28,433 nucleotides of DNA, from positions 1-28,433 of IMG/VR virus record IMGVR_UViG_3300044513_002415; one strand, written 5' to 3'. A model generated the notes under the pieces. The model was given only the letters and a program-made list of their open reading frames with translations, was not told where the DNA came from and did not search any database. Position numbers and translations under genes: made by a program. The DNA is from a virus. Lineage: Duplodnaviria; Caudoviricetes. Shown here in pieces: positions 550 through 28,433 of the stretch (positions are counted from its first letter, which is position 1; each line of letters begins with the position of its first letter).

Positions 550-801
550 TTAATTTCTACTACTAGTAGATTTTCTTAACCCACCTTTACGAGTGTTTTC
601 ACTAGTTTCTTTAACATCTACCCAAGTCTCTCCATCGGCAGCAAGCTTTTGACGACCTCCTATAGGTTTTGTTTTTCTAGTTACTTTTAATTTTCCCGAA
701 GCTATGTCTCTTTTTCTTTTAGCTTCTTGTCGCTCAGCTTCCATAGATTTTCTTATATCCAAAGGACTTTTAGCCATAAATGGACTTGAAAAATTACTCA
801 T
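550..801 (-). CDS. Small basic hypothetical protein (83 aa) with N-terminal SPF/SPL motifs
   Basis: ATG ORF packed 4 nt after the upstream gene with an A-rich start context; begins MSNFSSPFMAKSPL. Confidence 0.75.
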   Translation of the reverse strand: MSNFSSPFMAKSPLDIRKSMEAERQEAKRKRDIASGKLKVTRKTKPIGGRQKLAADGETWVDVKETSENTRKGGLRKSTSSRN

Positions 802-805
802 AATT

Positions 806-1135
806 TTATTTTTTATACTTAGTAGAACTCATTATCTTTAAAGTTGCTTCATCAGCTTCAGATCCTTTCTTAAATCCAACTTTTGCACCTGCTTTTAAAC
901 CAGCAACCGCGGCCTTAGCTAATTTATCTTCTTTATATCTTCTAGAATATCCAGCTGGAGCAGAAGTAGTATTAGTTGCTTTTTCTTTTTTTGGCCCAAT
1001 TAAGCCAGCTTCTCTAGCGCTTTTCACCCCTCTAGCAACATCTTCTTGAGTTTGACCAGGTAGTATTAACCCTTGATTTAAAGGTGATGATTTTGTCAAG
1101 TATTGTGTACAGTGTTTTGATGTAAATGGTTTCAT
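806..1135 (-). CDS. Small basic hypothetical protein (109 aa)
   Basis: Start overlaps the upstream stop (TAATG at 1133-1137); N-terminus MKPFTSKHC...SSPLNQ resembles that of the 104-aa neighbour. Confidence 0.8.
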   Translation of the reverse strand: MKPFTSKHCTQYLTKSSPLNQGLILPGQTQEDVARGVKSAREAGLIGPKKEKATNTTSAPAGYSRRYKEDKLAKAAVAGLKAGAKVGFKKGSEADEATLKIMSSTKYKK

Positions 1136-1245
1136 TATTTTTCTTTTTTAAACATTAATTTATATAGTAACGAGTTCCATTTACCTTTTAAATATTCGTT
1201 AAATGCAACTAACTTATTTCCGATTTTTATTAAAAACTTTCCCAT
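1135..1245 (-). CDS. Unannotated 36-aa cationic amphipathic peptide
   Basis: MGKFLIKIGNKLVAFNEYLKGKWNSLLYKLMFKKEK*. It fills the gap between neighbours exactly: it starts 1 nt after the upstream stop, and its TAA overlaps the next ATG (TAATG). Confidence 0.75.
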   Translation of the reverse strand: MGKFLIKIGNKLVAFNEYLKGKWNSLLYKLMFKKEK

Positions 1246-1246
1246 A

Positions 1247-1561
1247 TTAATAGTCGTCTCTTGATTTTTCTTCTTTAGTCATTTTAGCTTCAGCTTCAAT
1301 TTGCTTTTTCTTCATAGCTTCAATACTACCGTGTTTAGCTATAGCCATTGAATCTCTTCTTTTGATACGATCCATTATATTCTTTTTTGTCTGAGGATTT
1401 AAAGACTCAAGTCTTTTCATAAAGTTAGGATCTTTAAATTCTGCTGGTACGTGCTCTTTTTTTTCTTGATTTAATGGAGTACCATAATTAGCACAGCTTT
1501 TCTTTTCTAGTGGTGTACCGTAGCTCATCGGACTACAGTGTTTTGACATAAATGTTCCCAT
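1247..1561 (-). CDS. Small charged hypothetical protein (104 aa) with duplicated YGTPL motif
   Basis: ATG preceded by TAAAAATAAAC; begins MGTFMSKHCSPMSYGTPLEKKSCANYGTPLNQ. Confidence 0.8.
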   Translation of the reverse strand: MGTFMSKHCSPMSYGTPLEKKSCANYGTPLNQEKKEHVPAEFKDPNFMKRLESLNPQTKKNIMDRIKRRDSMAIAKHGSIEAMKKKQIEAEAKMTKEEKSRDDY

Positions 1562-1569
1562 GTTTATTT

Positions 1570-1851
1570 TTATTTTTTAGATTTATTTTTTTGACAAAAG
1601 TTTCTAGCAGCTTCTACACTACCAAATCCCCATTTTTTTAAAGCCATTGCTTTTTTAGTTGGTTCTCCTTTAGCATCTTTCATTGCGCCTGCCATACCAG
1701 CAAATCTACAAGCAAATGATACTCTTCTTTTACTAACACCTTTAGTTAGTCTTTTTCCCAATGACTTACCTGTTTCAGATTTATACTCTTTACGCATTTT
1801 TCTGTTTTGCTTCTCGTAAGCCTCTTCTTTTATGTTAAATGGTGTATTCAT
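1570..1851 (-). CDS. Small basic phage protein with RRxSFxxR...GM...AL.KW motif (DUF6321-like)
   Basis: RRVSFACRFAGMAGAMKDAKGEPTKKAMALKKWG resembles a widespread phage family that I recall as DUF6321; the family name is unverified. Confidence 0.65.
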   Translation of the reverse strand: MNTPFNIKEEAYEKQNRKMRKEYKSETGKSLGKRLTKGVSKRRVSFACRFAGMAGAMKDAKGEPTKKAMALKKWGFGSVEAARNFCQKNKSKK

Positions 1852-1852
1852 A

Positions 1853-2206
1853 TTAATATGTCCAAATTACGTTTTGTGATTTATCTTTATCGATGTCTAC
1901 ATGTATAAACGTACTTGCAACACCTATTCTATTGAAACCTACTTCTAACAATGCAGTTAACATTTCAAATCTATCATCAGATTTTACGCATGCTACATCA
2001 ATTGCTAAACCTTTTAAATGCGAAGATGAACTAACCCCACCAACCTTACGGTTATGAGACTCTGTTCTATATCCACTAGTTACACGTATTGGCTTACCGT
2101 AGATCTCTCTAGCTTCATCTATCATTTCAAGAAGCTTTGGATCCATAAGTTGACCACTACCTTGTATATCAGGCGAATCAAATTCTTCGTAGTTAAAATA
2201 TTTCAT
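1853..2206 (-). CDS. Endolysin, peptidase M15 family (Peptidase_M15_3-like Zn peptidase)
   Basis: YFxxxEF start, SGYR...HN..VGG...SSHLKGLAID (His/Asp zinc ligands) and FIHVD (third ligand). Confidence 0.9.
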   Translation of the reverse strand: MKYFNYEEFDSPDIQGSGQLMDPKLLEMIDEAREIYGKPIRVTSGYRTESHNRKVGGVSSSSHLKGLAIDVACVKSDDRFEMLTALLEVGFNRIGVASTFIHVDIDKDKSQNVIWTY

Positions 2207-2364
2207 TAGTCGTTATCTCTTTTTATGTGTATCCACTTGGATACAGTATACCCAATTGTAATTACAAGTAACAATATTTTCAAACCGTCTTCTATTTGTG
2301 TAAATGTTGTTACGCCGAGAGTCCCAGCGTTCATTGCGTATAATCTAATATCTGCTATATTCAT
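2206..2364 (-). CDS. Putative holin / small membrane protein (52 aa)
   Basis: Start re-called at ATG 2364 (preceded by AATAAAAATAAA): MNIADIRLYAMNAGTLGVTTFTQIEDGLKILLLVITIGYTVSKWIHIKRDND. It has a hydrophobic helix and a charged tail, and is TAATG-coupled to the endolysin. Confidence 0.65.
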   Translation of the reverse strand: MNIADIRLYAMNAGTLGVTTFTQIEDGLKILLLVITIGYTVSKWIHIKRDND

Positions 2365-2371
2365 TTTATTT

Positions 2372-2647
2372 TTATTCGCCGCAAGGCTCTCCTGTTTTAA
2401 CGTTAATCCAATTTTCTTTTTCAAACCAGTCACGTAATGTAGCACCTTTTTTACGAGCACCTTTAACTTCCGATTTAGTTGATCTTTCTCTTTTACCTTG
2501 TGCAGCCGCAGATTCTTTAGCACGGATAACTTTTTCTTTAGCTTCTTTGCTCATTGATCTTACTTTTGCAGCAGGTAAACATACTTTACGTGTACCACCA
2601 CCTTTAGCTTTATGTAGTGGTGTATTTCCTGGTTGTATATAAGCCAT
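2372..2647 (-). CDS. Small basic phage protein with CLP...MS..EK and LRDWF.KE.W..VKTG.PCG motifs (DUF5872-like)
   Basis: Motifs recognised from widespread small phage and giant-virus proteins; family label from memory. TAATG-coupled to the upstream gene. Confidence 0.65.
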   Translation of the reverse strand: MAYIQPGNTPLHKAKGGGTRKVCLPAAKVRSMSKEAKEKVIRAKESAAAQGKRERSTKSEVKGARKKGATLRDWFEKENWINVKTGEPCGE

Positions 2648-2892
2648 TATTTTTTTCCTTTATCTAATTTCCGCATTGCTGCGTTTCTAGCACACTTCAT
2701 TTTAGCAGCGTAGCTAGGATTCTTTTTTCTATTAAATACTATTTGTTGGTTTAGACTACCAACAATAGCTTTTTTATTTCTGTTTCTAGATCTGATTAGC
2801 CAATTAGCTAAAGCATCACATCCAAGTTCTTTAAACTTACCTTCTGCATCTTCGTATTTAGAGTCTTTCCACTCAGGTCTTTTACTTGCCAT
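2647..2892 (-). CDS. Small basic hypothetical protein (81 aa)
   Basis: ATG ORF with an 11-nt overlap upstream and a TAATG overlap downstream. Confidence 0.75.
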   Translation of the reverse strand: MASKRPEWKDSKYEDAEGKFKELGCDALANWLIRSRNRNKKAIVGSLNQQIVFNRKKNPSYAAKMKCARNAAMRKLDKGKK

Positions 2893-3055
2893 TTCTTCTA
2901 CAATTTTGCATGTTAATAAACCAGTTAGCTAATTGCACATCACGTTTAGTAGCTTCTCTTCTAGCTTTCAATTTGTTTACTTTAGTACAAGTAACATCAC
3001 CTCCGTATAGTTTATTAATACGAGCTTTTAAAACTCCGCGATATGCTTTTGCCAT
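2882..3055 (-). CDS. Unannotated 57-aa basic protein
   Basis: MAKAYRGVFKARINKLYGGDVTCTKVNKLKARREATKRDVQLANWFINMQNCRRNGK*. TAATG-coupled upstream, 11-nt overlap with the next gene. Confidence 0.8.
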   Translation of the reverse strand: MAKAYRGVLKARINKLYGGDVTCTKVNKLKARREATKRDVQLANWFINMQNCRRNGK

Positions 3056-3210
3056 TACTTCTTTTTATTACCGTAGTTTTGTGGTCCACCAGCTTTAGTA
3101 CATCTTACACCCCAACCTGAAGCATAAGCGCTAGGCCAAACCTTAAATTTTCTTTTAGCAGCAGCTTTGCAAGCTGAACTAATTTTACCGTATAAAGGAC
3201 TATTTGCCAT
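3055..3210 (-). CDS. Unannotated 51-aa basic protein with K.KFKVWPSAYA.GW motif
   Basis: MANSPLYGKISSACKAAAKRKFKVWPSAYASGWGVRCTKAGGPQNYGNKKK*. 11-nt overlap with the stop of the giant gene; the PSAYA motif is familiar from small phage proteins. Confidence 0.85.
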   Translation of the reverse strand: MANSPLYGKISSACKAAAKRKFKVWPSAYASGWGVRCTKAGGPQNYGNKKK

Positions 3211-6200
3211 CTTTATTTTTGTTTTGTAATTTTATAATTTCTTTGACTCTATCATCTTCTTTAGTTAAAGCTCTAATTTCTTTTTTAGTTAATCCTAAAT
3301 CTAAAAGCATCTTAACTTGATCTGACTTGTTAAGATTAAATAATTTTTTAACTTGTTTCTGTGTTTCAGTTAATACTGGTTCTGCTTCAGCTAAACCAAA
3401 ATATGGTAGTCCAACATCCCAACCTGACCAACCTAAAGCTAATGCAACTTTTTGCCAGTTTTCAGTAGCAGGATTTAATATATTACGCATGTTATTCATT
3501 TTCATAACAGCTCTATCTAATGGTATATTAAATATAGCTGATATTGTTTGCGCTCCTGCTAAATAAGCTGGATTGTCCATGCTGAAACCTTTTTCTTTTA
3601 TTTCTTTACCATTCCAAGAAACAGTTCTAGCAGCTGATTTTAATTTTCTAATTTTAGATCCAAGAGCTGGAGCTATAGAAAGTAAATCATCAAGAGCTTC
3701 CTCAAACTTAGGCGATTTTTTATCTGCCTGTTCGGCTATTGTCATTAAAGAATTTTTAACACCAGCTATAACAGCACCTTGAATACCAAGACCTTTTAAC
3801 TGCGAATCAATAGCGCCGTTTAAAGCTCTTTCTAGTTTTTGCTCTTTGTTAGCTTCTGTTAACTCTTCATCATCTTCATCATCATCAAACAATGCCCAAG
3901 CTAATCCACTTTGCAGTGCGTTAAACATTATGTTTTGTATTGCACCGTAATATACTATTTTAGATATATTAGCTCTCCAATCACCTCTTTTATTAACTAG
4001 ATCTTGAACAGCTCTCTTTTGTATACGTACATACTGAAGCTGAGTGTTACCAAACTGAAGTATAATACGTCCAATCAAAGATCTTTGTTGCTGACTAATA
4101 CGCATTGGACTACTAGACTGCTGATTTTCTTCAGCTATTAACCTAAAGTCTTCAAAAGCTTGTTGCTCTGCTAACTTTCTGTCCATACCTTGTTCAACCA
4201 AAGATTCTATTCTATTTCTATAAAATGTAGCACCACCAGAAGCAATAGCAAAACTATCTGCATATCTAGTAAATACAAAACCTTTGTTAAGTAAGTATGA
4301 TATAGCAGCGTTAACTTTATTTTTGCTACCTTCAACAGCATCAGCTATTTCAGATTCACTTACATTGATTTTAAGACCATCTCGTCTTTCAAGCAAGTAA
4401 TCAGAGTTCATAAGAGTTAAGAAGTCACCCCAAAATTGTTTTTGGTTAGCAAACGCTTTACCCGCCTTTAATATATTATTATCACCCCAATTTATAAAGT
4501 TTACCGCAGATATAGTCTGTAATACAGCAGATCTTGTGTTTAAGAACATTATAGCACCAACAGAGTTGTTTAACCAGTCTAGTATTTGATTAGAAACTCT
4601 ATCACCACCTAATGGTCTGTTACTACCACTTTTCATTGCTCGAAGCGAGTCTTTCAATGCTTCTACATACTTAACACCAAAAGCAGCTTCAAGTTTATTC
4701 ATATTCTTTTCAGAGAATATAATGTCTACATTTTCTTGCCACTCTTGTAAGTACTCTGCTCTATTGACTTTATTGATACCCGATATAACATCTGTTGTAA
4801 TGTTACCTGCTGTCCAGTCTTTATCTGGCTTTGGATATGGTTTGCCTTTTTGTATATTAACAAGTTGATCAGCAAAAGCCTGTAGCTCTGGATCAGCTTT
4901 AATAAAATCTGTTAATCTTTTTTGATCACGCTTAGAAAGCCCTGGAACTTCTATTCCTTGAGCATCCCATATATAAGTTCTAATAGCGTGCTGATATGAA
5001 TATTTAGAAATACCAGTTTCTTTTTCTAAAGTTTTTGGTACACCTTTAAATTGTTTCTTTAAAGCTTTGTAATCTCTACCAGCTGCAACCTTAGCTTGTG
5101 ATATAGCCATTTCAGCTCTGTTAAAAGGATCTAATAGATTTTCCTTATAAAAAGCCATTTGAGCATCACCAACTTTTCCTTTGCCTAAAGTCTTATAAAG
5201 CAAACCTAAAAAGTCTTCAGCTGATGGCGTTGTAAAGAAAGTAAACTTACCTTTGTTTGCGCCTACTGTTTTAGCTTTAGCAGCAGAATAATCTTTGTAA
5301 GATTCGATACCTGTTTTTTGTTCTATAATATCGTTGAATACTTTATCAAAAGTTTTACGTTTACTAGCTTTAGCTTGCTGTACTTTTGATTTAACATCAA
5401 CTTGACTAAGTACATCTTTAACAGCTTGAACATTTTTAACAGCGTCATCAGCAAAGTAAAAGTCGTTATAACCTTCAGCAGCTTTATCAGCTATCCATCT
5501 ACCTTTTGCTTCAGCAGTTCCATCACCAAGACCTGTTATGTTTTTTAAAGGTATATCAATACCATTAACTTTCATAAATTCTTGTATAGGTTTAGCAGCA
5601 TCAGCAGGTCTTGCTGTTAATATAAATATATCTTCAGTACCTCTTACTTTAGCTATTTTTTGAGCTACGCTGAATAATGGTCCTTTTTCACCTTCAATAA
5701 CTTTGCTAAACTCTCTAAAATCAAACTTTGCGCCTTGACTTTCTAGAACATTATATTCAGTGGCAAAGTCACTTGCATCAACTTTACCAACTTTGTTTGC
5801 GTTTATGCCAGCATAAACCTTTTGTAAAAAGTCATTAGGTAATGGTTTACCATATTCTATAGTTTCTGTGTTAATTTCGTATAAACGATCACCAAAGTCT
5901 TCTCTATATTTTTTTAAGCTCTCTTGAACACTTTCGTAAGTTTTCTTTACGACAAAATCAGGTAATGATCTTTCTGCTCTAGCTTTATTTCTTTCAATAG
6001 CTGTCTCAAGTGGTGTAGTAGCTACAACCATGTGTACTTCATAACCAGCATCTTGTAAAGCTTTTATTTTCTTAGTAGTAGCATTGTAAGAAGCGCCTGT
6101 ACCATCTATTACCATACCATTACCTGCAGCGGCGTATTTATCAAACTTAGCTACAGCGGCTTTTCTAGCAGCGGCACCAAGCTTAGATCTTAGTGATCTT

Positions 6201-9200
6201 TGCTCCGCTGTATAATCAGATTCTTTAGCTGGTAATTTAGACTCAGCTTTCATTGCTTCTAATGCTATATCTTGATTAACTACTTTATAACCACGTCTAC
6301 CAAGCTGTAATCCTTTGCCGACATTTGTTTTACCAGCACCAGGGCCACCAACCATAAATATAGCTTTTAAGTTTGTAGCACCTTCGCTAAATCCACCTTC
6401 TACATTTGGAACAGTATATAATACTTGACTTTTAGATCTAGCCAATGTATCGTCAAAGTCGAACACTCTAATCTTTTTAACTGGAGCATCAGGACGTCTA
6501 GCTTTGTTTAAAGCTTCATCTAAAATACTTTGATTATAAATATTTTGTTGAGCAGATATCTTCTTTTTGCTCTCCATAGATTTAGGAAGAACAGTATTTA
6601 AAGCGTTTTCAACTTTAGGAACATCTTTAACGCCTTGTTCATTAAGTTTTAAACCACTTGGTGTTATGCTAAATGTTTCAAAAACTGTTTTACCTGTAGA
6701 CAAAACTATATTACTAGGATCTATACCACCTCTAGTATTTGCAACATTTATATTAAAGTATCTAGCCCAAATATTGTCAGTTACTTTCCAACCTTCAGGA
6801 GTCATAGCTATATAATTAAAAGGTTCGCCATTTGGCTTTTTACCTTTTAATTTTTTATCATCAGCCAAAGCTAAAGCACCTTGAAAATAATTTTTTTCAA
6901 TATTTTTAAAATCTTTATTTATTGTTCCTGCAAACGCAGAGTTAAATAAATATTTAGCAACTAGACTTGCCGGCATTGTATGTTCTTCTACTATACCGCT
7001 AGAAACATCTTTAGAATAAAACTTAATAGGTGCAGATGTTCTAACAAAGTGGTTCATTCCTTGACTAGTGCTAGAAAGCAAGGCTATTATAAATGAAGTA
7101 TTGTTTTTATTTTCTTTCATTAAAGTTTCAAAAACTTTAAATAAATCTTTAAGTCCTTGAAGCTTAGCTTGTTGTTCTTTTTTAAACTGCTCGCTGTTAA
7201 ATTTATTTATAAATCTTTCACTTACTTTACCTTGTCTGCCTCCAGTTACATATGTGTCTCTAAATACCGCTTTGCTTATATTGTCATTTTCTTTAGCAAA
7301 AACCGCGTCTTGCAGTAAAATACCTAATTCACCTAAAGTGCCATCTTGTTTTAATAATCCAGATGTAAAAAAGAAATTTCTTTTAGCCGCACTCATTCCA
7401 GCATTAGCAAAAGTTCCATTTGTAAAAAAAGATTTTGGAACTCTAGGCGCTAACACGTTAACAACCCAGTCTTGCATTTTTTTAACATCTTCAGAGTTTT
7501 TAGAGCTTATAAAATCGACATCAGCTTTCTTAGCAATATAACTCCATCTTTTGTTTTCAGCAGCTAATTCGTCAGAAACTTTTTCAAAAGCTTGGTTTTC
7601 TATAAACATGTTTATATCTTCAACAGCTTTTCTTTTGCTAAATTTAGCTCCACCAACAGCTCTTTCAGCAGTTGTAGATACTAGACTTTCAAACATACGG
7701 TTTCTAATATGCAGGTTTAATAAACCTCGTATTGTTTGACCAACAGCGTCTCTATATATTGGCTTAACAGGCTTTTGTCTAATAAGATCCATATAATCTT
7801 TTAAAGTACCAGTTAACTTACCATTTGTATACAATGCGTTCATTACGTTTCTAGGTAAGAAAGTACCTTTACCAAAACCATCTTTAGTTTCTGGTAATCT
7901 AGCAAAATCATTATTAGCGTTTTTAAGTAAAAACTGTTTAGCTGTTGTTAAACCTTCAGAATCTGTTTTCTGATAGTTTCTAGTTTTATCAGTTATAGTT
8001 TGAGGATTCAAACCAAACATACCAGCATATATATCTGCTACAGTTTTAGGTACATTTCTAGTCTGACCAAAAGTTTTTATATCTTGACCTTTAAAAGCTT
8101 CTTTTGTAGCTTCTGTTATTCTAGTTTCAACTTCAGCTTTATCTTTAGCGCCTACTTTTTCTACTTGCGCTTGCGAAAACTCAACTGTTTCAGTAGGTTT
8201 TTTGGCTATTGGTTTTTCTTTCGTAACGGTTTCATCAACTTCTTCAGCTACAACTCCTTTAGCTTCTGTTACATCAGTTGTAAATTCTTCACCTAAAACT
8301 CTACGTGAAGCTTCAATAGCTCTAGATGGTAAAAACTTATTAATATAAGCAGCTAATGGCACGCCTGATTCTGGTTTGTATTCCATTATTAAATCAAGTA
8401 TACCTCTTGGTCCTGTTTCTATTTCATCTGTAAGTAGTTGACGATCAAAATTAGGCGCTTGACTTCTAGACTCTACTATTCTATTTGTGATAGGTTTAAA
8501 CTTGTTTATAATGTCCATAGCTGCAGAAACACCTTGGTCATCATATAGTCTTTGAACTTCTTGAGAATCTTCTACTCTTTTACTTTCTTTAGCTATTGAT
8601 TGTTTTAAGTCTGTTATTTCTTGAGGAGCTATATCAACTTCAACACCTTCTACAGCGGCTTTTTTTAACCCTCTAGAAAGACCTTGTTGTCTATGAACAC
8701 TTCTGTTGTAATCTTTTATAAAGTTTAATACGTCTTTACCGTTTTTAAACTTGACTTTCATACCCATAGCACTCAATGCTCTACGTATAAAACCACCTAT
8801 TTTATCACCTATAGTTTCATTTATCTCAATAGTACCTTCTGTTAAAGCTTCACTAGCAAGAGTTAAAACCTCTTCCATAGTATCAGCTTCTGATATATTA
8901 GCGTCTTCTACATATTGATCTAGTCTAGCTTTAAACTCAGGTTTTATTGTAATGTTTTCGTTTGTTTGTAGTTCATTTAATAATGACTTACCTAAAGCTA
9001 CGGCTGCTTCTGGTTTATTTTTAACAGTTTCATAAAGCACAGCATGTCCTGTTTCGTGCTGACCTTCTGTAAACGTTCTATCTTCCGTAGCAACTTCTTT
9101 GTTTAAAACTATAATTCTACGACCATCAGGTAGAACAACGAATGTTCCATAGTTATCAGAGTTTTTAGTATCTATTTCACTACCTTCTTCTTTCAATGTT

Positions 9201-10864
9201 TCAATAGCTGAATCAACATCTTCTTGAGTTTCAAAAGACTCAAAGCCTACACCTATTTCTTCCGCTATTTTTTTAGCACCAATATCTATTTTTTCAGATT
9301 TATCTTTTGTAATTAAATCACCTAATTGTTTGTCTATTTCAGATAATCTTTCTGATTGTTCTTTAGTTAAACTTGGGTTATCTATTGACTTTATTTCTTG
9401 CTTAAGCTTTTTTTGCTCTACAACTAAGTTAACTATAGGAGCTTTATTTTTAGTGCTAATACCTAAAGGTTTAATAGTATTTAAAGCGCCTTGTATTTCT
9501 CTGAAATTATTTTTAATTTCGTTAGATTTTTCTACAGTAAAAACTCCTTGTCCAACTTTTTCATTTAATTCAGCATCTAATTTTTTCTGTGTAAATCTAT
9601 TTTCAGTTAACTCTGAAAGTCCTTCTGTTAGATCTGGAGATTCATAAGCGTCAGTTAGATTTTTATATTCAGTTTTATTTAGATCGTTTTTAACGCTATT
9701 ATCTTCTAAAGTATTTCTAATTATTTTACCACCTACTCCAGTCGTACTCATACCACCGCCCATAGCTCCACCTACTAGAAAAACATCTATTACCTCTTTA
9801 AAGTAATTATCAAAAGCATCTTTTTTACCCAATATAACAGCATCAGCCATTCTATTTATTGTTTCTGTAGCTGATTCAGATAAACCTTCAGCGCCATAGT
9901 CTTTGCCTATACCCAACATTACTTGAGTTAAAGATTTCTTAACTTCATTTGCACCTTTACCTGAAAGATTTTTAAACATCTGACCGCCAATCTTTTTGGT
10001 AGTTACTTCAAGCAGAGCTTCTGAAGCACCTTTAACCGTAGAATAACCAATAGTTTTTAAACTTAGTTCTTCACCTTCTTTTTGAGCTTCAGCAGAAGCA
10101 CCTGCCGCTTCTCCTGCAAATATAGATGCTATACCGACATATGGTATCATAGACTGAACAACTGATGGTAAAGATCCTAAAGCGTCTGAAGCTGTTCTAA
10201 CTGTAGCTTCTACAAAATTACCCTTAGCATATTCTTCACCTATAGTTGTTTCAAATTGAGTTAAATCTTCTCTTATTTTTTCAGCTTTTTTAACTGACTC
10301 TTCGTAGTTTTGTAAACCAGTGTTCGCTAAATCTGTTAGACCAGGTTGAGGAGATATATTAGCTAAAACTTGCTTAGTTAAAGGATCTAAAGCGTCATAT
10401 CTAGCTTTTTCTTCGTCGGTCATAAACTCTCTAGAAATAGCGGCTTGAATTTCATTTAAAAATGTAGGTACTCTTGATAATTTACCTAAAGCATCTACTG
10501 TTGCTGCTTTTATTTTAGTACCTGTTTCTTGCCAAAAATCCCAATCACCATCTTTTTTTTCTTCAACGGTGTCAGATGTTACATCTTGATCAACTTGTGG
10601 TGATACCGAAAAAGTATCTTCCAAGCCAAATTCCGTAGCGGGTTGTGGTGCTTCTTGAGGTCCCATTGACGGAGCAACTGCACCCGGTACACCGTCTTTT
10701 TTCTTTACTGTACCAAGATCTACTTTATCAAGCTCTACAGTTTCTGAAATTAAAACTTCATCTTCTTCTTTATTTTTGTTTTTCCAATCTTTAGTTTTAG
10801 AGAGGATTTCATCTTGAGACAAACCTTGATCTTGTAAAGATGCTACATATTCTAGTAATGTCAT
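3200..10864 (-). CDS. Giant polyvalent internal virion (ejection) protein, 2554 aa
   Basis: Located after the tail genes; I see no Cys; Gly/Ala-rich hydrophobic segments near both ends. Motifs: HETGH (aa 603-607), sigma-region-2-like segment (~aa 770-855), EEHTMP (~aa 1293), HAD DFDDT (aa 1469), LTAR (aa 1749) and ADD (aa 1805), Walker A GGPGAGKT (aa 1506). Confidence 0.8.
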   Translation of the reverse strand: MTLLEYVASLQDQGLSQDEILSKTKDWKNKNKEEDEVLISETVELDKVDLGTVKKKDGVPGAVAPSMGPQEAPQPATEFGLEDTFSVSPQVDQDVTSDTVEEKKDGDWDFWQETGTKIKAATVDALGKLSRVPTFLNEIQAAISREFMTDEEKARYDALDPLTKQVLANISPQPGLTDLANTGLQNYEESVKKAEKIREDLTQFETTIGEEYAKGNFVEATVRTASDALGSLPSVVQSMIPYVGIASIFAGEAAGASAEAQKEGEELSLKTIGYSTVKGASEALLEVTTKKIGGQMFKNLSGKGANEVKKSLTQVMLGIGKDYGAEGLSESATETINRMADAVILGKKDAFDNYFKEVIDVFLVGGAMGGGMSTTGVGGKIIRNTLEDNSVKNDLNKTEYKNLTDAYESPDLTEGLSELTENRFTQKKLDAELNEKVGQGVFTVEKSNEIKNNFREIQGALNTIKPLGISTKNKAPIVNLVVEQKKLKQEIKSIDNPSLTKEQSERLSEIDKQLGDLITKDKSEKIDIGAKKIAEEIGVGFESFETQEDVDSAIETLKEEGSEIDTKNSDNYGTFVVLPDGRRIIVLNKEVATEDRTFTEGQHETGHAVLYETVKNKPEAAVALGKSLLNELQTNENITIKPEFKARLDQYVEDANISEADTMEEVLTLASEALTEGTIEINETIGDKIGGFIRRALSAMGMKVKFKNGKDVLNFIKDYNRSVHRQQGLSRGLKKAAVEGVEVDIAPQEITDLKQSIAKESKRVEDSQEVQRLYDDQGVSAAMDIINKFKPITNRIVESRSQAPNFDRQLLTDEIETGPRGILDLIMEYKPESGVPLAAYINKFLPSRAIEASRRVLGEEFTTDVTEAKGVVAEEVDETVTKEKPIAKKPTETVEFSQAQVEKVGAKDKAEVETRITEATKEAFKGQDIKTFGQTRNVPKTVADIYAGMFGLNPQTITDKTRNYQKTDSEGLTTAKQFLLKNANNDFARLPETKDGFGKGTFLPRNVMNALYTNGKLTGTLKDYMDLIRQKPVKPIYRDAVGQTIRGLLNLHIRNRMFESLVSTTAERAVGGAKFSKRKAVEDINMFIENQAFEKVSDELAAENKRWSYIAKKADVDFISSKNSEDVKKMQDWVVNVLAPRVPKSFFTNGTFANAGMSAAKRNFFFTSGLLKQDGTLGELGILLQDAVFAKENDNISKAVFRDTYVTGGRQGKVSERFINKFNSEQFKKEQQAKLQGLKDLFKVFETLMKENKNNTSFIIALLSSTSQGMNHFVRTSAPIKFYSKDVSSGIVEEHTMPASLVAKYLFNSAFAGTINKDFKNIEKNYFQGALALADDKKLKGKKPNGEPFNYIAMTPEGWKVTDNIWARYFNINVANTRGGIDPSNIVLSTGKTVFETFSITPSGLKLNEQGVKDVPKVENALNTVLPKSMESKKKISAQQNIYNQSILDEALNKARRPDAPVKKIRVFDFDDTLARSKSQVLYTVPNVEGGFSEGATNLKAIFMVGGPGAGKTNVGKGLQLGRRGYKVVNQDIALEAMKAESKLPAKESDYTAEQRSLRSKLGAAARKAAVAKFDKYAAAGNGMVIDGTGASYNATTKKIKALQDAGYEVHMVVATTPLETAIERNKARAERSLPDFVVKKTYESVQESLKKYREDFGDRLYEINTETIEYGKPLPNDFLQKVYAGINANKVGKVDASDFATEYNVLESQGAKFDFREFSKVIEGEKGPLFSVAQKIAKVRGTEDIFILTARPADAAKPIQEFMKVNGIDIPLKNITGLGDGTAEAKGRWIADKAAEGYNDFYFADDAVKNVQAVKDVLSQVDVKSKVQQAKASKRKTFDKVFNDIIEQKTGIESYKDYSAAKAKTVGANKGKFTFFTTPSAEDFLGLLYKTLGKGKVGDAQMAFYKENLLDPFNRAEMAISQAKVAAGRDYKALKKQFKGVPKTLEKETGISKYSYQHAIRTYIWDAQGIEVPGLSKRDQKRLTDFIKADPELQAFADQLVNIQKGKPYPKPDKDWTAGNITTDVISGINKVNRAEYLQEWQENVDIIFSEKNMNKLEAAFGVKYVEALKDSLRAMKSGSNRPLGGDRVSNQILDWLNNSVGAIMFLNTRSAVLQTISAVNFINWGDNNILKAGKAFANQKQFWGDFLTLMNSDYLLERRDGLKINVSESEIADAVEGSKNKVNAAISYLLNKGFVFTRYADSFAIASGGATFYRNRIESLVEQGMDRKLAEQQAFEDFRLIAEENQQSSSPMRISQQQRSLIGRIILQFGNTQLQYVRIQKRAVQDLVNKRGDWRANISKIVYYGAIQNIMFNALQSGLAWALFDDDEDDEELTEANKEQKLERALNGAIDSQLKGLGIQGAVIAGVKNSLMTIAEQADKKSPKFEEALDDLLSIAPALGSKIRKLKSAARTVSWNGKEIKEKGFSMDNPAYLAGAQTISAIFNIPLDRAVMKMNNMRNILNPATENWQKVALALGWSGWDVGLPYFGLAEAEPVLTETQKQVKKLFNLNKSDQVKMLLDLGLTKKEIRALTKEDDRVKEIIKLQNKNKDGK

Positions 10865-22181: not shown

Positions 22182-23642
22182 TTAAGCAGTAAACAATACA
22201 AAGTTGTTTGCTCCTTGTACAACCAAACATCTTTCAGAAAGGAAGTGTACTTCCATTGCGTCAAGATCTGAAGTGTAAGCTCCTCCTACAGAACCAGTGA
22301 TCCAGTTTTTCATACGACGATCATCAGCTTGTGAAGCTCGGTAACGAACGTGTAAGAAAGGACGACGGATATTTGTTCCTAAGATTTGATCGTAAACAGT
22401 TGAAGTTCCAGCTGGTACTAATACACCATCAATACTAGAAGTTGTTAAACCTCCACGAGTGGAAGCATCGTTTAAATATTTCCAATCAGTTTTGTAGAAA
22501 TCGTAAGATCCTCTACGGAAACCGCTAAATCCAAGATTTAAAGCCATTTCTTCAGAGTTTTCAAACAATCCATAAGCAGTACCACCTTGAGCACCAGCAG
22601 AAAGACCAGCAAGCATATCATCGAAAGATAAAGCAGTTTCTCTGTTTAAGAAAAGCATGTTTTCTTCGATAGCTCCTTGAGTATCTAGGTTTTTCAAAAT
22701 AGAATCAAAGTCGTTTAATTGACCAGTACCAGTATTGAAAGCAGAAACTACGTTACCTCTTTCGTTAATAGCAGCAAAAAGACCTTGAGTACCTTTTACA
22801 CCTACGGTAGATGTTCCACCTTTTAATTCACCTTCAACTACAGACATTTCTAGATAATCTTCAAAACGTAGTCTTGTTTCAGACTCAGCTTTTAAATACC
22901 ATAAGAAACCACCTGTTCCGTCTTCAGTAGCAACTTCTACCCAACCGATTTGAGCAGTATCAGAACCGTTAACAGCATATTTGTCTTTGATGATAATTGG
23001 AGAGTTAGAATACTGAGTGAAAGAAGGCTCTACAGAGAGTCTGTCAGAATCAGTAGTTCCTTTTCCATATTCAGAACCATATACAAATATTTTCAAAGCA
23101 GGAGAACCTGTTACTAAATCAACTTCGCTAGGACTTAAAGCAGAAACAGCTTCCTGAGTGTAAGGCTTAACAGTTAATTCACCAGCTGCTAAAGAAGAAC
23201 CTGGAGTTGCGCCAGAAGCAACAACATAACATTTAAGCTCGTCTCCATTAGCTCCATTAGTTACAACAATAGTTGAACCAGGAGATACTACATTTTCTAC
23301 TAGAGTAGCTCCAGCTCCACCTACAGGAATAGTTAAAGTAGATACGATATTTGGAGTAGTTCCAGTTGAAGTAGCAACGACACCATTGTAAGATATGTGT
23401 AATCTATTTTGTTCAGACCAAACTACTTGATCAGAAGTCATAGGCATTTCAGCGCCTACCATTCGTAAAAATCCAGATAACGTTCTGTTTCCATAACGCT
23501 CTACCTCAGCTTCGTAGATTTCTGGTAAATATTGCTGAGCGAAATCGCTAGTACCATTTGTAAAGTTCAAATAGTTTGTTTCTAGCGCTTGTTGTGTTTG
23601 CGATGGTTTTATTGTTCCAAACGCAGGTGCTACATTAGCCAT
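22182..23642 (-). CDS. Major capsid protein (HK97-fold, crAss-like size and position)
   Basis: 486 aa, after portal and scaffold; W.EQ.RL E-loop-like motif, G..GL...I..RG motif, C-terminal HFLSERCL.V.GANNF; followed by a terminator. Confidence 0.85.
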   Translation of the reverse strand: MANVAPAFGTIKPSQTQQALETNYLNFTNGTSDFAQQYLPEIYEAEVERYGNRTLSGFLRMVGAEMPMTSDQVVWSEQNRLHISYNGVVATSTGTTPNIVSTLTIPVGGAGATLVENVVSPGSTIVVTNGANGDELKCYVVASGATPGSSLAAGELTVKPYTQEAVSALSPSEVDLVTGSPALKIFVYGSEYGKGTTDSDRLSVEPSFTQYSNSPIIIKDKYAVNGSDTAQIGWVEVATEDGTGGFLWYLKAESETRLRFEDYLEMSVVEGELKGGTSTVGVKGTQGLFAAINERGNVVSAFNTGTGQLNDFDSILKNLDTQGAIEENMLFLNRETALSFDDMLAGLSAGAQGGTAYGLFENSEEMALNLGFSGFRRGSYDFYKTDWKYLNDASTRGGLTTSSIDGVLVPAGTSTVYDQILGTNIRRPFLHVRYRASQADDRRMKNWITGSVGGAYTSDLDAMEVHFLSERCLVVQGANNFVLFTA

Positions 23643-23655
23643 AATTTTTTAATTT

Positions 23656-24843
23656 TTAGTTTTTGAATTTTTTAATTTTAAGTTTTGTAGAATCAGCACC
23701 ACTAATAGCTTTTACTTTAAAACCATTAATAAACACATCACCGTTACTAGTAGGTCTTGCTTTAGTGTCACTAAGATTTTTAGATTTACTAACAACCTCT
23801 TTAACAGCATCAGCTTTACCTTGTTCATAAAAGTGAGATGCGATACGATCTACATTTTCTGCAGCATACATAGCCTTGTGATAGCCAGAATAATCTTTAA
23901 CAGAACCATTTGAATCAAGGAACTTCCCGATTAGGTTGTTAATATTAGACTGTTTCTCAGCGACAACGTCAGTGTTTTGAATTTTATACCTATACTTCTT
24001 TTCACCTACGCTAATATCGAAACCTTCGAAATCTTCAGTAAAAAGTTTTTTAGTATTATTTTTAAACTCTTCGTGCTGTTGTTTAGCTGTTTCCTGCTGC
24101 TTGTTATATCGATTGAAAAAGTCCATAGCTTTCTGAGCGTCAGGGTTTACATTTGATTTCAACTTGATATCAGCGTAATATTTATCCTTAGTCTCGTTTA
24201 AAAAGCGTCTGGCTTTTGCAACTTCTTCTTTAAATGCAAGTTTTTTCTTGCGTATATCTTTATCTTCATCTAAATCTTCATCGTATTGAAAATCTTCTAA
24301 CAATAAATCAATATCTGAATTATCAAGATATGGTTTTTCTTTTTTATAATACTCTTTTAACAATGTGTTATCGTCTATGCTAGAGTAATCAGCATTTAAT
24401 CTAACGTAGTCTTCTACGCTACCACCAGTCTCTTCCATAAAAGAAACTAGCTTTTCTATATTTTCAGGTAATTGCTTACCTAAAACTTTTTCATCTCTAA
24501 TAGCTTCTTTAAGTTCTTGCTTTACTTCAGCTACTTCTTCAATAATTTCTATTGGAGATTCTACTGCTTCTTCGGTGGCCCGTACTTCTTCAACCACTTC
24601 TTCGCTGTCGCTACTGTTTTTGGGCTCTTCGATAATAACATTGCTATCATCTGTCTCTTGTGTTTGAACGGCATCTTCTTTTGGTATTTCGACTTTAACA
24701 ACATCTGGTACAACTTTACCTTGAGCCTCTGGCTTAGTTAAGTCTACTTTAGTTACTTCGTCTTTTTTAACTAGTTTTTTAGGTGTAGTTTTCTTTTTAC
24801 CTTTTAAGGTAAACTTACCTTCTTGTTTTACTTCTGTTGACAT
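23656..24843 (-). CDS. Putative capsid scaffolding protein
   Basis: Acidic, low-complexity and helical; lies between portal and major capsid protein; C-terminal A.HFYEQGKADA motif. Confidence 0.7.
   Translation of the reverse strand: MSTEVKQEGKFTLKGKKKTTPKKLVKKDEVTKVDLTKPEAQGKVVPDVVKVEIPKEDAVQTQETDDSNVIIEEPKNSSDSEEVVEEVRATEEAVESPIEIIEEVAEVKQELKEAIRDEKVLGKQLPENIEKLVSFMEETGGSVEDYVRLNADYSSIDDNTLLKEYYKKEKPYLDNSDIDLLLEDFQYDEDLDEDKDIRKKKLAFKEEVAKARRFLNETKDKYYADIKLKSNVNPDAQKAMDFFNRYNKQQETAKQQHEEFKNNTKKLFTEDFEGFDISVGEKKYRYKIQNTDVVAEKQSNINNLIGKFLDSNGSVKDYSGYHKAMYAAENVDRIASHFYEQGKADAVKEVVSKSKNLSDTKARPTSNGDVFINGFKVKAISGADSTKLKIKKFKN
24561..24674 (-). CDS. Candidate overprinted 37-aa basic ORF (+1 frame) inside the scaffold gene
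   Basis: MPFKHKRQMIAMLLSKSPKTVATAKKWLKKYGPPKKQ*; A-rich upstream sequence with A at -3; locally atypical codons in the host frame. Confidence 0.55.
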   Translation of the reverse strand: MPFKHKRQMIAMLLSKSPKTVATAKKWLKKYGPPKKQ

Positions 24844-24875: not shown

Positions 24876-27263
24876 TTACATAAATGCTCCTAAACCTTGA
24901 TCTGGTTCGTTTTCAAAGTCTATTGGCAAGCCATCGTTTTTTCTTTGACTTATCATTTCACTTTGTTGTGTCGCTTGTATTTTTGTTCTTTTGTCTTTGC
25001 GATCTTCTATAAACTGCTCTTTGTTTCTTTCAACTTGAATATCCATTTGCTTAAGCTGCATGTCATACTGAAACTGTCTTTCCATTTCAGCTTGCTTTAT
25101 TTGAGCTGCAATTTGCATTTTCTGCATTTCCATTTCTTGCTTAGCTTTTTCAATATCAACTTTAGTTGATGCTATAGCCTCTTGTTTTTGAACTTCAGCC
25201 ATAGCAGTTCTTTCAGCTGTTTGCGCTTGAGCATCTGCTTGAGCAGCGATATTAGCTTGTTGAGCTTTTTGATCACGTTCCATTTTAACCTTACGCTTAA
25301 TCTTTAACATTTGATTAGCTAACTTAAGGTTTTTAATTTGACGTATATCGATAGCGTCTTCTAGGTCTATACCTCCAGATTGTAGAGCGACTTGTATGTT
25401 TTGCTCTAGCTGAGCTCTTTCTTCTTCATCGGGTTCTAGCTCTAAAAATATACCAAAATCATGTAGATTCAAGTTTATAACTTCATCTAGTGATTTTATA
25501 TTGTAGGTTGATATAGAGTTTTGTAACGATGCTCTAGTCAGTGGAAAACGTAGTGCATCAGCTATTTTAAGCGATACATTTTCTGCTAGTTTAAGAGTTA
25601 AATATAAACTAGACTGAACAATATGTCTAGTCGCTACATTCGACGCGTTAGCGGCTAGTTTCTGTAAACCTACAAGCGTAGATTTATCAGGCACGCTACC
25701 GTCTCTAGCTTCGTTTAGTCCTGTCACGTCACGTATCATCTGTAAATAGTATTGATACGTCTGAATAAGACTTTGTATTTTACCACCACCACTAGAGCTG
25801 TTAAGTTCTTGAATAGGTACTTTACCGTGGTTTAATTCACCGTCTTGTGTTAAAGATCTACCTACAATAGAACCAGTTTGAAAATACATATTTAATGCTT
25901 CAGCTGGATTGTAGTTTGTTCCATTACCTAGATCAACCTCTGCTAAACCGTCCATATCAAGATAAACACCATCTGGCACCATTCTTGATAATACTTGTTG
26001 TAGTTTTAAATGCGTAATTTGAATCATATCAGCAAACCCAATACACTTACTAACAATAGATTCTATTCTACCCTTGTACATTCTAGGTGCACATATAGCA
26101 TAATTCATAGCAACCTTAGTTGTGTCAGCATATGGTCTTGACATATTCTCAGCCAGCTCCCACTTAAGCATCGTGTCTGTTCCTAAAACTACAGCGCCAT
26201 TGTAAAGAACCTCTATAGTTCTAGATACTCTTTCAAAGTTATCATTTTCTGGCGGATTAAATGTATCTGGCTTTTCAATAGCCTTCATTAACCCTTGGTC
26301 AGTTTGTTTTATTTTAAATACTTGATTGTGGTATGTTTTGTAATCAAAGTATAAAACTTGAACTGTATTCTCGTCGTATTGTCCCCAACCAGTTATATAT
26401 GATTTATTACCTGGCATATTTTGTATACGCTCTAGTTCTTTTTCAGATATATTAGGAAACTCTTTTTTAAGTTCTGATATTGTTATTGATTTAACTTCAC
26501 CAACATAATATATATCTTCAAAGTTAGGATCTTCTGTATAAGAATAAACCATATAAGAAGGGTCAACGTAATCAACCTTAACGCCTTCAGCTATATTGAA
26601 ATTAGTTTTCGCAGCCGCAATACCTAATACAGTTAAATCCATGTTAAGTCTACGTCTAACTAAGTCGTATTTATTTTGTGCAAATACAGTGTTAATGCTT
26701 TCTTCTTCAGCTATTTCGATTGACTGCTTATAGCTTAATTGCATTTTAAGCTCCAACTCTTCTTTTGATTCAGGTATAACGTCAATGCTAGGTGATTGAT
26801 ATAAATCTATACCTAAAGTTTGCTTTACAGTTTCGATGTAATCTTTAGCTATCATATCCTCGTAAAGCTTAGAAGCATAATCTGTTCTTTTCTTTACTGA
26901 CTGAGGATCTTGAGCATAAGCTTTAATATCGTAAGCTTTTTGAGATATACCGTTTACAACGATATCTACAAACTTAGATAAAATTGGTACTGGTTTCCAG
27001 TCTAAATTAAGATAAGATAAATCACCGTTAATAGATAATTCATCTTTATATTTTTGTATAGATTGCTCGCCTCGAGCATATAGTCTTAAGTTATGGAAAT
27101 TATTCCAGTTAGTTAAATATCTATTACCATTAGTTCTACCTTGTCTAAACCACTCATACTCTATAGCTTGAGCAACTTGCTTTCCATATTCTATAGTGTC
27201 TTTTTCTTCGTTACTTACTACTTGACTAGGAAAAGAACTGTTGTTATTAGTGTAAACGTTCAT
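24876..27263 (-). CDS. Portal protein
   Basis: 795 aa directly after the terminase; P.PI..KFVDIVVNG and IRDVTGLNEARDG blocks; Gln/Ala-rich C-terminal coiled-coil barrel typical of podovirus portals. Confidence 0.85.
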   Translation of the reverse strand: MNVYTNNNSSFPSQVVSNEEKDTIEYGKQVAQAIEYEWFRQGRTNGNRYLTNWNNFHNLRLYARGEQSIQKYKDELSINGDLSYLNLDWKPVPILSKFVDIVVNGISQKAYDIKAYAQDPQSVKKRTDYASKLYEDMIAKDYIETVKQTLGIDLYQSPSIDVIPESKEELELKMQLSYKQSIEIAEEESINTVFAQNKYDLVRRRLNMDLTVLGIAAAKTNFNIAEGVKVDYVDPSYMVYSYTEDPNFEDIYYVGEVKSITISELKKEFPNISEKELERIQNMPGNKSYITGWGQYDENTVQVLYFDYKTYHNQVFKIKQTDQGLMKAIEKPDTFNPPENDNFERVSRTIEVLYNGAVVLGTDTMLKWELAENMSRPYADTTKVAMNYAICAPRMYKGRIESIVSKCIGFADMIQITHLKLQQVLSRMVPDGVYLDMDGLAEVDLGNGTNYNPAEALNMYFQTGSIVGRSLTQDGELNHGKVPIQELNSSSGGGKIQSLIQTYQYYLQMIRDVTGLNEARDGSVPDKSTLVGLQKLAANASNVATRHIVQSSLYLTLKLAENVSLKIADALRFPLTRASLQNSISTYNIKSLDEVINLNLHDFGIFLELEPDEEERAQLEQNIQVALQSGGIDLEDAIDIRQIKNLKLANQMLKIKRKVKMERDQKAQQANIAAQADAQAQTAERTAMAEVQKQEAIASTKVDIEKAKQEMEMQKMQIAAQIKQAEMERQFQYDMQLKQMDIQVERNKEQFIEDRKDKRTKIQATQQSEMISQRKNDGLPIDFENEPDQGLGAFM

Positions 27264-28433
27264 TTAACTTATTATTTTTGATGTGTATCCACTGTTGTCA
27301 TATCTTTTGATGCCTATGTCAACAGGTTCCGTTTTTCTTTTATTTATAGGTGTGTACCTATGTTTGTTACAAGCCATTAAAGCTAAACCTGAGCTAATAG
27401 ATGCATCGTGAGATGTTCTATTATTAATGTTAAACTTAGCCCAGTCTTCAAGCGTTCTTTGAAAGTACATATCACCGTAACCTGTTTCTCTTAGTCCAAC
27501 AAAGTTTTCTATGTAAGATTCTATAGCTGCAGCGTGTGCTTGTTTAATATCTTCACTAGAGTTTGGTATACCACCTATTTCTCTTTCTGTTACTGATAAT
27601 TTATTTCTAGCTCTATCAGGTCTGTTCATTGCGAAACCTCTATAACCTCTTTTTCTAAAATAATATAGTAAACGAGGTTTATTATTTTCAGCTAGTATTG
27701 GCATGCCATAAAAAGCACAAGCCATTAAAACATCTTCAAAAAATATTTCAGCAGTTTGTGGTCTTGCTATATATTCTAAAAAGAAATGGTTTGGTGGTAC
27801 GTCTTCCATTGAAAACTTTGTTAAACCGTGTAGAGAACCATTAGATCCTCTTTTATCAACTGTACCTGATATATCGTAAGGGTCACATCCAAAAGCACCT
27901 AAGTGCTCATTGCCAGGATAATAAACTCCTCCTTTATTTATTTTTCTATTTTGTAAATTAATACTAGGTATCCAACTAATTAAAAATCTACCGCTTTTAT
28001 TTGGAGTAAAAATAACTCTAGTATCTTGCTGTCCGTTTTCCCATTGAAAACTTCCTTTTGTTACATTTATAGAGTTACGCATGTCTTCATTAAAATCTAT
28101 TTGTTCGTATATTTTGGTTAGATTAAATAAAGATTGCTTTGTTTCATCTCTAAACGCGTGCTTTTCAGTGCGTGGAAACTGTCTGTAAAATTCATTTAAA
28201 GCATCTTGATCTTGCTTTAATCCTTCTACTTCGTTATCCCAGTATTCTATTACACCTATTTTTATTTTTTCACCTTGTGGTCCTTCGGCAGGTTTGGATG
28301 GAGTATTGAATACAGGTATTCCATAAGAATCAATGTATCCCTCGTAATTCCATTCCATAGGTATAAACAAAGAATATAATCCCGAACGAGTCTGCCCGTT
28401 GGCGTTTCGCTGAGTGACGTCCGAGTCATCATA
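27264..28433 (-). CDS. terL: Terminase large subunit, C-terminal nuclease region (5'-truncated by the window)
   Basis: The frame stays open to the window edge (YDDSDVTQRNANGQTRSGLYSLFIPMEW...). Motifs: QFP....AF, RNase H-like FGCDPYD, LAENN and HDASISSGLAL. Confidence 0.9.
   Translation of the reverse strand, partial: YDDSDVTQRNANGQTRSGLYSLFIPMEWNYEGYIDSYGIPVFNTPSKPAEGPQGEKIKIGVIEYWDNEVEGLKQDQDALNEFYRQFPRTEKHAFRDETKQSLFNLTKIYEQIDFNEDMRNSINVTKGSFQWENGQQDTRVIFTPNKSGRFLISWIPSINLQNRKINKGGVYYPGNEHLGAFGCDPYDISGTVDKRGSNGSLHGLTKFSMEDVPPNHFFLEYIARPQTAEIFFEDVLMACAFYGMPILAENNKPRLLYYFRKRGYRGFAMNRPDRARNKLSVTEREIGGIPNSSEDIKQAHAAAIESYIENFVGLRETGYGDMYFQRTLEDWAKFNINNRTSHDASISSGLALMACNKHRYTPINKRKTEPVDIGIKRYDNSGYTSKIIS

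Follow-up and report, generated by a model that had tools for sequence, protein, structure and literature searches.

Does a gene standing between the portal and likely capsid genes of a virus of the Caudoviricetes conceal a second gene in its +1 frame and, if so, which of the two is the older? The DNA considered here (the window) is the whole of IMG/VR record IMGVR_UViG_3300044513_002415, 28,433 nucleotides, for which CheckV gives a completeness of 44%. A sequence-only reading, made without database searches, had picked out a short open frame inside what it called the scaffold gene and had proposed that its very basic product, co-expressed with the acidic scaffold, might act as a core or DNA-condensing protein. 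The open frame is almost certainly a real gene; the role proposed for its product has fared less well.

The locus and the surrounding gene

On the minus strand the order is terminase, portal, the 395-aa gene, a 486-aa virion protein and more virion genes (Table 1). Size and gene order, rather than a family model naming it, make the 486-aa product likely to be the major capsid protein, and with the 395-aa gene occupying a scaffold's position between portal and likely capsid genes, its product is likely the head scaffolding protein. The term 'scaffold gene' comes from gene order: among PHROG and Pfam profiles no scaffold family matched the protein. Its Elemovirus homologue is annotated 'structural protein'. 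Cultured homologues are from phages of Flavobacterium, Cellulophaga and Maribacter, and so the host of the present marine phage is likely a flavobacterium. The linker stretch that bears the nested gene is acidic, with few hydrophobic residues.

Table 1. Features of the window discussed in the text
Feature	Positions	Strand	Remarks
Terminase large subunit, C-terminal part	27264..28370	-	phrog_6681, E 7e-82
Portal gene, immediately 5' of the 395-aa gene	24876..27263	-	phrog_6547, E 3e-147
395-aa surrounding gene, likely head scaffolding protein	23656..24843	-	assigned by position
Acidic low-complexity linker of the 395-aa protein, bearing the nested gene	24484..24723	-	about residues 41-120
Upstream in-frame ATG (24704) and TTG (24713)	24675..24713	-	ORF of 47 or 50 aa if used as start
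A-rich initiation region of the nested gene	24675..24689	-	A at -3, -6, -11, -13 (T at -12)
Nested 37-aa gene, MPFKS family	24561..24674	-	+1 frame of the 395-aa ORF, ATG to TAG
Virion structural gene, likely major capsid protein, immediately 3' of the 395-aa gene	22182..23642	-	phrog_13704, E 1e-94

The nested frame and its conservation

The nested ORF is there and its translation is exactly as claimed, 37 amino acids and then TAG, with the strand, which the claim had omitted, being minus (24674 to 24561). It begins at host codon 57. The 4.3 kDa peptide has 11 lysines and arginines, a pI of 11.0 and no aspartate or glutamate; the absence of acidic residues to which attention had been drawn is a feature of this copy and not of the family, 70 of 76 members having some. 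Host codons ending in G or C are, as had been remarked, enriched in the overlap (14 of 37, against 78 of 359 in the rest of the gene; 34% versus 22% over 72 sequences). The two starts further upstream have C at -3 and T at -6, and an in-frame ATG upstream of the nested start occurs in only 5 of the 72 sequences. How surprising is such an open frame? On synonymous re-coding of the host segment its 36 open +1 codons were kept in 6% of cases for this sequence and in a median of 13% over homologues, so that a single sequence is not striking and proof has to be comparative.

The comparison was with 80 loci homologous to the 395-aa gene (52-84% identity). At 72 of these an MP-start +1 ORF is at the same site; at a 73rd, L040, the scaffold frame is stopped ahead of an intact nested ORF, which may be a sequencing error. 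The ORF is 36-52 aa long in 72 of the 73 carriers. It stops after 25 aa in the closest scaffold homologue (L001, 84%); when the 80 loci closest in allele to the window were taken instead, this contig was the only one with a truncated copy. The +1 ATG and open frame are thus conserved at 73 of the 80 homologous loci, with one truncated. The scaffold linker itself varies freely, being lost or replaced at 7 of the 80. The nested ORF is absent from 7 loci (5 changes being needed on the scaffold tree), and in the fetched DNA no other copy lies within about 3 kb of them, from which it follows that the gene is dispensable at this site. No second conserved +1 ORF was found downstream of it, the commonest later start being present in 6 of 160 loci.

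The exact window peptide is absent from a collection of 15 billion proteins and yet is encoded at 100% identity on 14 viral contigs: gene callers overlook it. That standard annotation would miss the gene is therefore borne out, the ORF being real and unannotated.

Which frame is under selection?

In four allele groups (57 sequences) that were set by peptide motif, and are to that extent biased towards low peptide change, variants counted against the consensus fall 66/37/21 on host codon positions 1/2/3, position 1 being the wobble position of the +1 frame; the C-terminal control gives 489/331/1061 (Fisher p 3e-16 versus the overlap). In the +1 frame 70 of the 124 variants are silent (25% expected) and in the host frame 13 of 124, with omega-like values of 0.26 and 3.4, respectively. 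As these groups are motif-defined, a check was made without such selection, on contigs of eight sequencing runs aligned to the window. Among the matches listed, the peptide is left unaltered by 15 of 19 variants within the overlap and the host protein by 2 of 19, versus 32 of 50 that are host-silent outside it; the reduced synonymous change that dual coding had been expected to leave in the host frame is present. On the pattern of these variants, purifying selection is protecting the small protein and not the host stretch.

Could the ORF nevertheless be a mere shadow of a conserved host motif (D/N-A-V/I-Q), and no gene at all? The nested ATG results from the host codons in 69% of re-codings, and the Pro2 codon is CCA or CCG in 28 of 28 nested copies and 33 of 52 free ones, which implies either some host-frame constraint or shared ancestry of the nested copies. 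However, peptide residues hold while host residues change, and the same protein exists free-standing, with the shadow frame stop-free in only 10 of those 52 free copies. The direction of selection refutes the shadow reading, to which we attach next to no probability. 'Overprinted', the term used initially, would imply a frame that arose anew on an older gene, but here the constraint lies on the small gene, itself one of a widespread family, and the host linker is free to vary. A de novo overprint was rejected on the lesser constraint of the host frame and on the size and distribution of the family described below (3310 clusters, with 52 of 80 loci not fully nested).

A probable start of its own

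The A-rich region just ahead of the nested ATG reads as Lys/Glu codons in the host frame. Over 72 nested starts A is present at -3/-6/-11/-12/-13 in 0.93/0.90/1.00/0.78/0.90, versus 0.32/0.49/0.33/0.61/0.25 at 1263 other +1 ATGs of the same genes, figures in which the A-richness partly follows from the Lys/Glu codons and the related sequences are not independent. Mean folding energy is -1.0 kcal/mol at the nested starts and -4.1 kcal/mol at the other +1 ATGs. In work on Flavobacterium johnsoniae, the reported initiation determinants are A at -3, -6, -12 and -13 together with weak structure (PMC6847099). The match of adenine pattern and weak folding to these determinants makes it likely that the nested gene initiates independently, with Bacteroidota-type adenines at its start. 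Contigs from RNA runs in two studies cover the nested stretch; these may be DNA and are strandless, and so are not usable as evidence of expression.

A family of free, fused and nested members

The window peptide has the N-terminal MP(F)K, Q8, helix-2 tryptophan and basic tail of the MPFKS family, with His replacing Ser5 and a longer loop. When 40 nested peptides were made into a profile, it drew in 3310 clusters (50% identity), and a broader profile drew in 1837 short proteins; the 120 of these that were listed all lack a Pfam domain and are called nothing more than hypothetical. Stand-alone homologues, which had been described as common, are indeed so: among the 80 viral loci found with the nested peptide, 52 are free or partly overlapping and 28 fully nested, always in the +1 frame. 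Members are free-standing, N-terminally fused, nested or in Acidobacteriota chromosomes, and they range over phages of Flavobacterium, Synechococcus, Streptomyces, Mycobacterium and Pseudomonas as well as bacterial chromosomes. The motif is at residue 1 in 138 of the best 150 matches.

After masking of the shared stretch, the hosts of the 28 nested loci form six clusters without mutual similarity: the scaffold accounts for 9 loci and giant proteins of 1300-2000 aa for three clusters (10, 4 and 3), the other two being singles, L100 and L126, that are high-GC ORFs and may be mis-started or spurious, so that at least four host groups are unrelated. In Elemovirus the nested ORF is missing from the scaffold homologue and present, unannotated, in the +1 frame of a giant structural gene; this copy is Cys-type (L165:30259-30387; NC_055853.1:52379) and 68 records carry it. 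Free copies are found in FlowerPower (gp48), 023Pt_psg01, S-CBS2, C75C1, Barnyard, Patience and 201phi2-1, with the GenBank records of S-CBS2 and C75C1 leaving theirs unannotated (L162:6001, L163:6001). A longer-loop subfamily lies amid housekeeping genes (purH, pfk, recA) in Acidobacteriota assemblies, being present in 8 of 101 genomes of one class. Chromosomal-looking members occur in Acidobacteriota, Elusimicrobia and Lentisphaerae assemblies (L370, L388, L390, L396, L398, L405, L407, L408, L382, L402), several with long Lys/Arg/Ala tails. A further subtype (L051, L053, L055, L056, L058, L064) has two invariant cysteines, at positions 12 and 22 in L051, that could form a disulfide or a metal site. 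One 98-aa singleton, P0111, encoded on a 760-base contig, combines the motif with an RNase P protein domain and is probably an artefact.

What is this family related to? PHROG 1375, of unknown function, is among the closest collections: 13 of the 40 nested peptides match phrog_1375 (best E 2e-5) and its model matches the free copies of S-CBS2 and FlowerPower, though the window allele is without a match. The named relatives in cultured phages are Barnyard gp9, Patience gp10, FlowerPower gp48 and 201phi2-1 gp383, the PHROG match having been checked for FlowerPower. The family profile matches Barnyard gp9 and 201phi2-1 gp383 with E about 1e-9; Patience gp10 is more remote, at E 1e-4 (18.8 bits). 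Unlike the window copy all are free-standing, and those of Barnyard and Patience are without the N-terminal MP, on which account the notion of an N-terminal proline nucleophile was dropped. DUF3008 (PF11450) has a similar N-terminus, MP-x-KS-x-AQ (14 columns, probability 46%, pairwise E 2e-4), and came up twice as an ESM Atlas lead (under 0.9), the leads being otherwise unnamed clusters. The middle of the MPFKS family is, however, longer and unaligned, and no member is above the curated cut-off of the Pfam DUF3008 model. Sequence searches of Pfam, NCBIfam and the PDB gave nothing credible, the PDB matches, at about 2-3 bits per stretch, being to repeat proteins, some of them designed and others natural. 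In literature that was mostly outside subscription papers no description of the family was found, nor any of DUF3008 or of the Elemovirus proteins.

A portable cassette?

The Cys-type allele is distributed over 80 loci as 71 scaffolds and 9 giant proteins, and a scaffold copy has 80% nucleotide identity over 87 bases to the Elemovirus giant-gene copy. Sister scaffolds that are 95% identical in their C-terminal DNA bear different alleles, and the window allele requires 9 changes on the scaffold C-terminus tree (13.9 if shuffled, 1 if clonal). Identical nested peptides occur in scaffolds only 63% identical, the loci having been picked by peptide. The presence of one allele in both scaffolds and giant virion genes suggests that the gene acts as a portable cassette, a reading that we consider probable, and such a cassette would move by recombination. 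Of the two partners the small gene is probably the older; nesting would then have come about when an existing gene was captured and not through the birth of a new one.

How might capture proceed? With so few free copies having a stop-free shadow frame, nesting needs a pre-adapted copy. A stop-free, lysine-rich member read one base back would give an acidic low-complexity stretch of a type that a scaffold or giant virion protein might tolerate as a linker; the A-rich Lys/Glu codons ahead of the nested gene would double as a Bacteroidota start signal, and the stop-free copy could then pass in frame, as a cassette, from one scaffold lineage to another and also enter other late genes. The larger picture, of an MPFKS cassette spreading out of sight, in the +1 frame where unrelated late genes encode their acidic linkers, with the host frame giving the start and the product, among the most common unstudied proteins of phages, being a minimal two-helix binder of a target that differs little from one bacterial phylum to another, is tentative, and we lend it slightly less than even credence. 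If it holds, many 'DAVQ/NAIQ' acidic linkers in annotated phage proteins are shadows of an MPFKS gene.

What does the product do?

The AlphaFold model of one member (L108) has helices at 6-15 and 17-26 (pLDDT 86), that is two short helices and a basic tail, and the median net charge of the family is +11. Fold searches with the 41-residue model against solved structures gave no match (Foldseek best E 7; VIA best Z 2.0), a result as compatible with a known fold as with a new one. There were weak matches, E 1.3 and 3.2, to uncharacterised proteins of Harvfovirus and Terrestrivirus. Our preferred reading, with belief and doubt about equally balanced, is of a conserved 37-residue gene at whose own ATG, within the message for the late head genes, translation likely begins, and whose likely two-helix basic protein would bind nucleic acid inside the infected cell. 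Its least secure step is that the aromatic two-helix core and Lys/Arg tail might bind DNA or RNA late, with minor carry-over into particles at most. Taken separately, binding of nucleic acid in the cell is modestly favoured by charge, fold and context. The best-conserved part is, however, the hydrophobic core and not the basic tail, and a protein partner fits equally well.

The role first proposed, that of an abundant virion core protein neutralising or condensing the packaged DNA, now appears unlikely. Every nested copy with an identifiable host does sit in a head or virion gene, and among 49 free copies whose neighbours were scanned 15 loci adjoin head, portal, terminase or tail genes, but about 12 adjoin DNA-metabolism or other non-virion genes. 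The cultured relatives are instructive. In the mass spectrometry of Patience, gp10, which is in the post-portal block and is listed as a virion protein, is represented by 1 spectrum in particles, versus 5 at 30 min and 2 at 2.5 h in infected cells (1 against 7), while gp111 and gp11, the basic proteins next to it, reach 36 apiece in particles (PMC4324244). The gp383 of 201phi2-1 is without a virion-protein flag while its neighbour gp382 is flagged, though small Lys-rich proteins can escape trypsin mass spectrometry. Chromosomal copies have no capsid to fill. It is the Patience counts, gp383, the mixed neighbours and the chromosomal copies together that favour a nucleic-acid binder in the cell over an abundant core protein.

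Rather improbable too, at a comparable level, is that the N-terminal motif and aromatic core serve to dock the protein on some conserved machinery of the host, be it ribosome, RNA polymerase or protease, or else on a component of its defences. The peptide is conserved more than the phage's own head proteins, being shared by the divergent scaffolds mentioned above, and the breadth of the family, five bacterial genera of phage hosts and chromosomes besides, with its motif so regularly at residue 1, is what such docking would lead one to expect. Yet there is no match to a characterised family or solved structure, the inter-helix loop differs widely in length and sequence, and close relatives swap alleles with different surfaces. 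Much further down the scale is the proposal that the motif is an N-terminal tag bringing cargo to the prohead, or that programmed frameshifting joins the nested ORF to the scaffold C-terminus, for which we see very little chance. Of the best 150 matches 41 are at least 100 aa, nearly all with the motif N-terminal (one with lysozyme and one with DUF6321), and a few database proteins fuse the peptide in frame to scaffold-like sequence. However, each of the six peptide-plus-linker proteins checked is a singleton from one contig, the pattern that sequence errors would give; the nested copies compared, 160 of 160, stop within 52 codons; and the family consists mostly of short free-standing proteins. 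An ArfA-like ribosome rescue factor would also be small and basic, but neither the window nor any of the 116 alignment rows scanned matches PF03889, the profile compared with a real ArfA gives a probability of 0.03% over one aligned column, and the KGKG motif of that ArfA is in 0 of 76 members; the likeness was rejected, and a rescue role is exceedingly improbable.

Other genes within genes

Genes nested within other phage genes are already known. phiX174 E, within the scaffold gene D, is a de novo overprint; it too is out of frame in a scaffold gene, but the MPFKS nested gene has thousands of free relatives. Lambda Rz1, an embedded spanin, is like the present gene small and contained entirely within a larger gene of its own strand, in the +1 frame, with the difference that Rz/Rz1 is a fixed functional pair while members of the MPFKS family are found free, fused or embedded, the last in several hosts unrelated to one another. 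A spanin survey found no family in which some members are embedded and others separated, and it proposes that the embedded kind derive from separated genes (PMC6139136). Patience genes 91 and 20 also contain out-of-frame ORFs, shown by mass spectrometry (PMC4324244), though these are poorly conserved and that of gene 20 is without a match to the MPFKS family.

What the present case offers is a natural series: one family in free, fused and embedded states, with alleles shared by unrelated host genes. With the MPFKS family supplying what the spanin survey did not contain, the route from separate to embedded genes becomes testable, and the gene itself is made testable by a cultured pair, Elemovirus and Flavobacterium sp. 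BAL314, with an unannotated nested copy.

Elsewhere in the window, at least 8 small basic genes are clustered on the minus strand at 550-3210, after a giant gene. Two of them (2882-3055 and 3055-3210) are under 60 aa and below the default cut-off, one is DUF6321, and five have [ST]P[LFM] motifs close to the N-terminus. A tail motif of this type is shared by 18 of 149 nested and 0 of 51 free members of the MPFKS family, and was set aside as too rare for a mechanism. The 2554-aa giant protein (3200-10864, minus strand), in whose gene no nested MPFKS copy was found, has a kinase-like P-loop domain at about residues 1500-1650 (profiles AAA_33, Zeta_toxin and polynucleotide kinase), and it resembles another giant protein that does carry a nested MPFKS copy.
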